Source of the DNA: Escherichia coli
Lineage (GTDB): Bacteria > Pseudomonadota > Gammaproteobacteria > Enterobacterales > Enterobacteriaceae
DNA length: 801 nt
Reading direction: 5' to 3' (one strand)
Assembly (NCBI RefSeq): GCF_003334335.1
Contig: NZ_QOWQ01000149.1
Position numbers and translations under genes: made by a program. Under the pieces are notes generated by a model that saw nothing but the letters and a program-made list of their open reading frames with translations, ran no database searches and was not told where the DNA came from. Of this stretch, positions 1-644 are shown one piece after another (the first letter of the stretch is position 1; every line of letters starts with the position of its first letter).

Positions 1-330
1 CCGGCAGAGCCGGAAGCTGCATCCGTAGCGGAAACCGATGGTAAAGCCTTTCCTCAGCCAGCAGGTGTTGCGTTACCAGTACAGGAAATGATGGCACAGG
101 AAGAAATGAAAACAGAAATCGTGGAAGACATTGTGAGGTTACAGCCATCGATCACCGAAATGAAAGCAGATGACCTGATTCTACCATCGCTGCATGTGGC
201 TAACCGCGAGCTGCGCCGGGCGAAAAGTGATGTCCAGAAGTGGGAGCGAGTCTGTGCTGCGCTGCGGGAACTGAACAAACACAGGGATATTCTCCGGGAT
301 ATTACCGCCACCAGAGAGCAGCAGCGGTGA
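1..330 (+). CDS. Hypothetical protein, probably 3' portion of a gene that begins upstream of the window. Charged, helix-like C-terminal tail after a Pro/Ala/Glu-rich stretch. Alternative internal starts at ATG 88 or ATG 91.
   Basis: The frame with codons at 1,4,7... has no stop from position 1 to TGA at 328-330, as I translated by hand (PAEPEAASVAETDGKAFPQPAGVALPVQEMMAQEEMKTEIVEDIVRLQPSITEMKADDLILPSLHVANRELRRAKSDVQKWERVCAALRELNKHRDILRDITATREQQR*). The ORF track starts at ATG 88, but AGGA at 83-86 sits only 1 nt before it (4 nt before ATG 91), which is poor spacing for a ribosome-binding site. The stop overlaps the GTG start of the next gene. I do not recognise a family. Confidence 0.6.
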   Translation, partial: PAEPEAASVAETDGKAFPQPAGVALPVQEMMAQEEMKTEIVEDIVRLQPSITEMKADDLILPSLHVANRELRRAKSDVQKWERVCAALRELNKHRDILRDITATREQQR

Positions 331-644
331 GTGGCTGGAAGAAGTGGCGCTGGGCTGAAATCCTGATACTCCGGCAGTGTGCGGGAACGATGAGAGTCGA
401 AAGCATCGGTTATCTGATTGGTCGTAGTGAGTCAGCCGTCAGGACGAAAGCGCGGGAACTGGGTATCAGCATGATTTTACGGGGTGATTTTCACCCGTCG
501 GCAAAATATTCACAGCGTGATATTGAGCTGGCGCGGCAACTGCATCAGCGTGGCGTACCCCGACGGGAAATTGCCGAAAAGTTTGGGATGAAGTTGGGCG
601 CAGTGAATAACTACGTTTATTTCGACAGGAGGGTTCAGGAGTGA
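327..644 (+). CDS. Small putative DNA-binding protein (105 aa) with two tandem helix-turn-helix-like repeats; GTG start overlapping the upstream stop. Alternative starts GTG 240 (ORF track) or ATG 390.
   Basis: Open frame 231..644 ending at TGA 642-644. GTG 327-329 overlaps the gene 1 stop TGA 328-330 (GTGA). Product from 327: MSGWKKWRWAEILILRQCAGTMRVESIGYLIGRSESAVRTKARELGISMILRGDFHPSAKYSQRDIELARQLHQRGVPRREIAEKFGMKLGAVNNYVYFDRRVQE. Two halves share the pattern RQ...(S/E)I(G/A)xx(I/F)G(R/M)(S/K)x(S/G)AV (ILRQCAGTMRVESIGYLIGRSESAV vs LARQLHQRGVPRREIAEKFGMKLGAV), a classic HTH layout. Starting at 240 would add about 29 residues of low-complexity sequence overlapping gene 1 in another frame; starting at 390 would cut off the first helix. 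Only a weak purine-rich stretch (AGAGAG 313-318) precedes 327, so the start is uncertain. Confidence 0.65.
   Translation: MSGWKKWRWAEILILRQCAGTMRVESIGYLIGRSESAVRTKARELGISMILRGDFHPSAKYSQRDIELARQLHQRGVPRREIAEKFGMKLGAVNNYVYFDRRVQE
627..641 (+). promoter_or_regulatory. Shine-Dalgarno region for gene 3: AGGAGG (627-632) and a second AGGAG (637-641), lying inside the 3' end of gene 2.
   Basis: Read directly: acAGGAGGgttcAGGAGtgagggtg. AGGAGG is 8 nt upstream of GTG 641; AGGAG is 5 nt upstream of GTG 647. Confidence 0.55.

Follow-up and report, generated by a model that had tools for sequence, protein, structure and literature searches.

Organisation of the locus

The stretch of Escherichia coli DNA analysed here (contig NZ_QOWQ01000149.1; hereafter, the window) is 801 bases long and carries, between two partial genes on the same plus strand, a complete gene at positions 327..644 for a protein of 105 amino acids. 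This protein, which we call the AB protein, is a heterotypic pair of helix-turn-helix (HTH) units of two different subtypes, unit A and unit B, joined by a linker. The coding sequence, which has a GTG start and a TGA stop, was found in the list of open reading frames (ORFs) and is identical to the RefSeq coding sequence WP_001529167.1, annotated as 'hypothetical protein' in strain Eco889 and in 87 further near-identical E. coli genomes. The 5′ side of the window (1..330, plus strand) is the 3′ part of a DUF1627 (YdaW-like) gene, as seen from Pfam (DUF1627, 8.9e-82) and RefSeq, and its counterpart in Rac-SA53 is noted as ydaW. The 3′ side (641..801, plus strand) is the 5′ part of a DUF4406 (nucleoside 2-deoxyribosyltransferase-like) gene according to Pfam (DUF4406, 2.6e-36), PHROG 355 (9.6e-23) and RefSeq. 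Both junctions are GTGA overlaps on the plus strand, evident in the sequence and in RefSeq. At the upstream junction (327..330) the AB start codon GTG (327-329) overlaps the DUF1627 stop codon TGA (328-330), and at the downstream junction (641..644) the AB stop codon TGA (642-644) overlaps the annotated DUF4406 start codon GTG (641-643). The four-base overlap at the upstream junction was kept in 78 of 84 related loci.

The first-pass annotation of this DNA, made from the sequence alone, had proposed an ORF of about 105 amino acids beginning at GTG 327, and it had raised the internal ATG at 390 as a possible true start. The proposed ORF was confirmed by the same coordinates in RefSeq, by the homologues and by the conservation of residues 5-21. 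In the alignment of close relatives, the N-terminal sequence K-W-x-R-A-E-I-x-I-x-R-Q-C-A-G-T-M was kept, and the core of residues 5-21 (W7, A10-E11, L15-R16 and A19-G20) persisted at 30-40% identity, down to about 30%. The AlphaFold2 model and the alignment place residues 5-21 in helix 1 of the first unit. Because this conserved N-terminal segment forms helix 1 of the first domain, ATG 390 was rejected as the start codon, and the homologues gave no indication in its favour. Database entries of 84-93 amino acids begin at internal methionines.

The window occurs as a 100% identical stretch in many E. coli chromosomes. It was matched, at least in part, in 1460 of 5426 complete E. coli genomes, 549 of which contain 80% or more of its length, and at least 99% identity to it was seen in 88 records. 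In Eco889 it lies inside a lambdoid prophage adjoining potC, where the genes of the early-right operon are arranged in the order cro, ydaT-like, O-like, DnaC-like, DUF1627, the 105-amino-acid AB gene, DUF4406, nin-type and Q antiterminator genes. The ORF at 327..644 is a real gene of an E. coli lambdoid prophage. An Rfam scan of the window gave no match, the promoter and terminator scan of the window gave no sigma-70-like promoter or intrinsic-terminator-like site, and PADLOC gave no match for the AB protein or either neighbour. A literature search found nothing on the AB protein, and DUF1627 was named there solely as a synteny marker.

Predicted two-HTH structure of the AB protein

AlphaFold2 predicted helices at residues 9-18, 24-31 and 35-45, followed by helices at residues 63-74, 79-86 and 90-104. 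The same helices were obtained with a shallow alignment (mean predicted local distance difference test score [pLDDT], 82.2) and with a deep, diverse alignment (mean pLDDT, 88.5). The two HTH units expected by the first-pass annotation were thus recovered by structure prediction, at residues 9-45 and 63-104. Unit A, a Myb/GcrA-like three-helix HTH, comprises residues 7-46 (345..464, plus strand), includes the first three helices and has the motif W..AE...LR..AG......I....GR...AV...A..LG. Unit B, a three-helix HTH resembling those of resolvases, HTH_7, PAI and Cbp2, comprises residues 63-104 (513..638, plus strand) and includes the last three helices. Among close relatives, the recognition-helix residues (A-V-R-T/A-K-A-R-E) were invariant.

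Alignments and AlphaFold2 define the inter-domain linker as residues 47-62, SMILRGDFHPSAKYSQ (465..512, plus strand). It is a signature of the family, L-R-G-D-x-H-x-S-A-K-Y, including G53, H56 and K60-Y61, and was predicted to be mostly non-helical, with pLDDT dipping to about 71-76; the segment 46-62 is the less confident part of the model. The linker together with the start of unit B (LRGDxHxSAKYxxxDxELARxLH) mimics a tetratricopeptide repeat (TPR) motif and draws false positives in hidden Markov model (HMM) searches. TPR proteins (LGN, Pins, designed CTPR and the 1621-amino-acid P0124) matched the linker region repeatedly and nothing else, and were rejected as spurious relatives.

Family relationships of units A and B

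Pfam gave no significant family for the whole AB protein or for unit A, and NCBIfam gave sub-threshold hits only. When the unit A profile was compared with Myb repeats, the first Myb-like repeat of DMTF1 (PDB 2llk) was matched at 3e-5, CEF1 at 2.9e-3 and c-Myb at 3.5e-3, while the Pfam Myb models were below significance for the AB family. Unit A resembles Myb/SANT domains in having three helices and a conserved N-terminal Trp (W7). It differs from them in that W7 is the sole conserved member of the Trp triad; in the 39-sequence alignment, I27 and L45/G46 stand at the other two positions, an equivalence inferred from the Trp spacing of Myb.

The first-pass annotation had likened the first unit to the N-terminal HTH of GcrA and to sigma-70 region 4. 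The GcrA resemblance held for the fold, since unit A has the fold of the N-terminal DNA-binding domain of GcrA, but not for the family. The Pfam GcrA model (PF07750) did not match the AB protein even at E ≤ 10 and matched only 1 of 31 unit A sequences, at 0.04, and the GcrA DNA-binding domain (PDB 5yiu) gave sequence E-values of 0.18-0.28, which are not significant. GcrA is a cellular cell-cycle regulator of alphaproteobacteria. Its C-terminal sigma-70-binding domain is absent from the AB protein, which has a linker and a second HTH instead and ends at residue 105. The AB protein is GcrA-like in fold only and lies outside the GcrA family. The likeness of the first unit to sigma-70 region 4 did not survive: unit A sequences scanned alone against the region 4 models (PF04545 and PF08281) reached 1.2e-3 at best, and the weak Sigma70_r4_2 match of the AB protein itself (0.014) falls in unit B, at residues 76-98.

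That match was accompanied by one to HTH_7 (PF02796; 0.0016), the two together lying on residues 60-98. Among 39 family members, HTH_7 was matched at E ≤ 0.001 in 3 and at E ≤ 0.1 in 13, with a best value of 2.2e-7. Profile matches of unit B in the PDB were Cbp2 (2lvs; 3.8e-7), DeoR, IstA, the Tn3 and gamma-delta resolvases and Sleeping Beauty PAI.

Relation between the two halves

The first-pass annotation had aligned the two halves of the protein and explained their likeness by an internal duplication. As a single sequence, the halves were no more similar than shuffled controls: the BLOSUM62 local self-alignment scored 17 and the shuffles 18.2 ± 3.4 (z about -0.4; empirical p about 0.65). 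With shallow profiles built from close relatives alone, half-against-half hhalign gave a probability of 2.7%. When the half-profiles were built from 39 diverse members, however, hhalign aligned them in exactly the register of the first-pass annotation (KWRWAEILILRQCA-GTMRVESIGYLIGRSESAVRTKA against KYSQRDIELARQLHQRGVPRREIAEKFGMKLGAVNNYV) with a probability of 93%, an E-value of 2.8e-7 and a score of 30.5 over 37 columns, while 100 column-permuted controls had a mean score of 7.8 (standard deviation, 2.2) and a maximum of 20.3. The claimed alignment therefore stands at the level of diverse family profiles and fails for the single sequence and the shallow profile. The similarity of the halves is real as judged from these profiles, yet it is at the level found among members of the three-helix HTH superfamily.

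Separate HMMs were made for unit A (residues 5-50) and unit B (residues 58-103) and run on the 149 best representatives. Among the 147 with an assignable architecture, AB (53) and AAB (45) were the commonest, together accounting for 98; ABAB (P0131) and AAAB were seen once each, and the others included A-only and B-only proteins and arrays. The A-only proteins have single units or 3-12 copies, and the B-only proteins single units or 3-11 copies; W-T-x-E-E...L-G-R-S...A-V...K-A...L-G-I units are repeated in P0127, P0145 and P0151, and B-type units in P0167. The B model also hit just 14 of 379 A-type domains. In profile comparisons with solved structures, unit A matched the DMTF1 Myb-like repeat (3e-5) ahead of the B-type Cbp2 (7.5e-3) and the CAP repeat (0.029), and units A and B were not each other's closest relatives. 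The duplications seen in the family are those of unit A, giving AAB, or of the whole module, giving ABAB. Since the relatives come as AB, AAB, or A-only or B-only arrays, a recent internal duplication as the origin of the AB protein is not supported by these comparisons, and the differing subtypes of the units, their rare cross-hits and the closeness of unit A to Myb rather than to B-type domains likewise speak against the duplication that had been proposed.

Relationship to T5 D5 and other phage proteins

The 150 close homologues, mostly named 'DNA-binding protein' at NCBI, came from Escherichia, Salmonella, Pantoea, Enterobacter, Citrobacter and Pluralibacter. When 1.84 billion cluster representatives were searched with a profile, 1241 matched at E ≤ 1e-3, of which 208 reached E ≤ 1e-10. 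The AB family has no Pfam family of its own, and all of the genomic contexts sampled were phage or prophage, mostly early or accessory gene blocks. Among predicted viral structures (BFVD), 29 matches at E ≤ 1e-3 were obtained, mostly uncharacterised phage proteins of about 100 amino acids; some were longer proteins, whose annotations read endonuclease, HNH, Vsr, 'D5 protein' or 'GcrA cell cycle regulator'.

Residues 5-104 of the AB protein matched PHROG 323, 'transcriptional regulator, D5-like', at 2.3e-25, over positions 147-248 of 319 (102 of 319 covered). The D5 protein of phage T5 (T5.118; 255 amino acids) falls in the same PHROG (1.2e-71). With the family profile, the whole of unit A, linker and unit B aligned to D5 residues 134-232 (hhalign probability, 82%; E-value, 1.1e-5; identity, 25%). 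In D5 (T5 genome, L098:27311-28078), two A-like units (residues 72-120 and 135-181) precede a B-like unit (residues 196-232), all of these positions being approximate. The literature search found no domain-level description of D5. The GenBank record of T5 describes D5 as a DNA-binding protein that is needed for DNA replication and late transcription and is involved in shut-off, and a passage of PMC12630848 refers to it as a DNA-binding protein for replication and late transcription, citing McCorquodale et al. (J Virol 1979).

The AB protein and D5 are alike in that they fall in PHROG 323, align over unit A, linker and unit B, and are both phage early gene products. They differ in size, D5 having about 130 extra N-terminal residues that include a further A-like unit, so that the AB protein lacks the full architecture of N-terminal part, A, A, linker and B; they also differ in that T5-like phages are virulent, whereas the AB protein belongs to a temperate lambdoid prophage. 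Judging from these alignments, T5 D5 appears to be an AAB-type member of the family, and the AB protein is best described as a minimal AB form of the D5-like family. By analogy, the two proteins may have a function in common.

When the predicted structure was searched against the PDB with Foldseek, the top match was Cbp2 (2lvs; E-value, 0.013; probability, 0.95), and further neighbours were the Tc3 bipartite domain (1u78), AraC-type domains, the Pax5 and Pax6 paired domains, CEF1 Myb pairs and SETMAR. Whole-chain template modelling scores (TM-scores) were low, 0.3-0.43, as expected because the domain orientation is free. Cbp2 resembles the AB protein in its size of about 105 amino acids and in having two three-helix HTH units and a linker, and the profile-sequence match (3.8e-7) consisted of two stretches. 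The difference is that a clear sequence likeness to Cbp2 is confined to unit B, unit A being Myb/GcrA-like, and a common domain arrangement is not implied by the TM-scores. Moreover, Cbp2, which binds CRISPR repeats, is archaeal, and the Tc3 and Pax domains are parts of transposases or eukaryotic factors.

A protein listed in RefSeq as hypothetical can thereby be assigned to a family and to a type of structure. Its AB module, in which a Myb/GcrA-like HTH is followed by a conserved linker and a resolvase-like HTH, forms the core shared by a large phage family for which Pfam has no model. This core is tied to D5 of T5, an early regulator long known but poorly understood, so that D5-type function becomes testable on a protein of 12 kDa. 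No new kind of system is revealed by the AB protein.

Neighbouring DUF1627 and DUF4406 genes

The neighbourhood was examined in 85 loci, consisting of 80 viral contigs encoding proteins 82-99% identical to the AB protein and of other fetched loci; these are closely related prophages and are not independent of one another. The upstream ORF was DUF1627 in 79 of 84 loci, and the downstream ORF was DUF4406 in 67 of 85. In 14 close relatives (L071-L085), DUF4406 is replaced by an unrelated ORF of 75 amino acids (VKILYQDYGPVGQVV...) that starts 6 bases past the end of the AB gene. Phage D6, which is P1-like, has its AB gene (76% identical) directly 3′ of a DUF4406-containing gene, with overlapping stop and start codons, and an unrelated gene follows. 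There (orf89-orf90, L002:2360-3312), DUF4406 makes up the N-terminal portion of a product of about 200 amino acids, and the order is reversed relative to the window. Either neighbour also occurs where the AB gene is missing: DUF4406 is present in phage vB_EcoS-689R5 and DUF1627 (ydaW) in Rac-SA53, with LygF in the slot of the AB gene in both.

In 15 other or distant loci, each with up to 4 kb of flank on each side, the DUF4406 HMM found no copy except in D6, and in four further distant loci no DUF4406 was adjacent. Homologues in distant loci were found in a P22-like early block beside another Myb-like protein, upstream of terminase, in a block with a Mu Gp12-like gene, in the early region of Mu-like phages and after a Q antiterminator gene. 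Another distant homologue, P0163, is flanked by genes for an SNF2 helicase and an N6 DNA methyltransferase. The contig that carries it, a metagenomic phage contig (L087:96-4137), encodes in succession a 171-amino-acid protein with a unit A and an HNH-like part (weak Pfam GcrA match), the helicase, P0163 and the methyltransferase, mostly with overlapping stops and starts. On a distant prophage-like contig (L103:1-1287), DUF4406 (3.2 kb away) and an MT-A70 methyltransferase form one block 2-3 kb upstream of the AB homologue.

Four-base stop/start overlaps are common in lambdoid nin-type regions and characteristic of the present operon. Because the same overlap is found at both junctions of the AB gene, the one shared with DUF4406 does not on its own speak for a partnership. 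The first-pass annotation had read the tight coupling to the DUF4406 gene as a sign that the AB protein regulates the module or targets the enzyme to DNA, and had suggested checking whether homologues always sit beside DUF4406-like genes. They do not: DUF4406 is replaced in about 20% of close relatives, inverted in D6 and missing beside the distant homologues, and the proposed tie is not supported by these observations. The adjacency to DUF4406 is gene-order mosaicism limited to close enterobacterial relatives, not a conserved partnership.

Possible function of the AB protein

The explanation that we favour, and hold to be probable, is that the AB protein is a small basic early prophage protein made of unit A, linker and unit B that serves as a DNA-binding accessory regulator, its neighbours being independent mosaic modules. 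The two-HTH, DNA-binding character proposed by the first-pass annotation is very probable in view of its basic nature (pI 10.3; 20 K+R against 11 D+E), its bipartite-HTH structural neighbours and its relationship to PHROG 323 and T5 D5. The protein would be made from the early-right (pR) transcript via translational coupling. From the predicted model and by analogy, we infer that one AB molecule may bind double-stranded DNA in a bipartite manner, with both recognition helices (35-45 and 90-104) placed in neighbouring major grooves and the linker running across the intervening backbone or minor groove. Cbp2, Tc3 transposase and paired domains bind DNA in this bipartite, adjacent-major-groove fashion. 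By analogy with T5 D5, its role would be that of an accessory factor regulating phage transcription or replication, and the DUF1627 and DUF4406 genes would be independent mosaic modules rather than obligate partners.

Four points weigh against this explanation. The predicted template modelling score of the diverse-alignment model (0.58) is moderate and does not fix the mutual orientation of units A and B, which bears on bipartite binding by a single molecule. The recognition-helix residues vary across the wider family in the 39-sequence alignment; this variation is compatible with diverged site specificities, though it is no proof of them. The link to D5 is remote at 25% identity and an hhalign probability of 82%, and it concerns solely the C-terminal 100 residues of D5. 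Finally, Myb/SANT-type domains can bind proteins rather than DNA.

This last property would come to the fore if the AB protein were a protein-binding adaptor whose SANT-like or sigma region 4-like unit or units attach to RNA polymerase, or to some other protein of the host or the phage, and thereby redirect transcription. GcrA, which acts through sigma-70, offers a precedent, and weak Sigma70_r4 and Sigma70_r4_2 matches were seen in 16 of 39 family members at E ≤ 0.1. We regard such a role as unlikely, given that the AB protein is strongly basic, that its best whole-chain matches are DNA-bound bipartite HTH proteins, that its relative T5 D5 is a DNA-binding protein and that it has no counterpart of the sigma-binding C-terminal domain of GcrA.

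The model of the first-pass annotation, in which two homologous HTH repeats arose by internal duplication and the DUF4406 enzyme is either regulated by the protein or brought to DNA by it, could draw on the profile-level alignment of the halves in the proposed register, on the frequent position of DUF4406 directly downstream, on the overlapping DUF4406-containing gene directly upstream in D6 and on the one distant locus with DUF4406 3.2 kb upstream in the same block. It is rendered improbable by the chance-level self-alignment of the single sequence, by the distinct subtypes of the units, each with closer relatives of its own, and by the 14 close relatives with an unrelated downstream ORF, the occurrence of DUF4406 and DUF1627 in the absence of the AB gene, the lack of DUF4406 beside distant homologues and the equal overlap at the upstream junction.

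There is also a very small chance that the AB protein is a free-standing DNA-recognition module of homing-endonuclease origin, acting as the partner of a nuclease in trans or persisting as the remnant of a nuclease. A unit A does form the N-terminus of the HNH-like protein of L087, the BFVD neighbours include fusions annotated as endonuclease, HNH or Vsr, and HNH endonuclease families are among the side hits of an AAB relative in PHROG. Set against these, AB and AAB far outnumber the other architectures, conservation across the 1241 clusters takes in the whole length of the protein and its linker, and no nuclease gene was consistently adjacent in the loci examined.

A GcrA-like reading of methylated DNA, with unit A recognising N6-methyladenine sites and coupling phage expression to the methylation state, is highly improbable despite the overlapping genes around P0163 and the MT-A70 block of another homologue, as the similarity to GcrA is not significant by profile or by Pfam and no methyltransferase is annotated within 12 kb in the prophage of Eco889. 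A broader form of this idea, to which we give hardly any weight, would make AB proteins phage-wide minimal GcrA-like readers of DNA modification, in which unit A senses modified bases, unit B anchors the protein on the sequence and an early-to-late switch is operated as by D5 in T5. If it were true, such a class of readers would explain the recurrent siting near DNA methyltransferases and the nucleoside 2-deoxyribosyltransferase-like DUF4406, and the switch would follow the modification state of phage versus host DNA.

Mosaic junction and AB gene fragments

Window bases 1-296, within the DUF1627 gene, are 83-85% identical to Rac-SA53 (L100:2078-2839) and to PPompW phages. The similarity ends just 5′ of the AB gene, which marks a mosaic junction close to where the two genes meet. 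All that is left of the AB gene in PPompW and in some Stx2a-converting phages is a fragment (residues 1-65, 60% identity; L005:3001-3171 in the PPompW phages), apparently a remnant that other annotated ORFs overlap.

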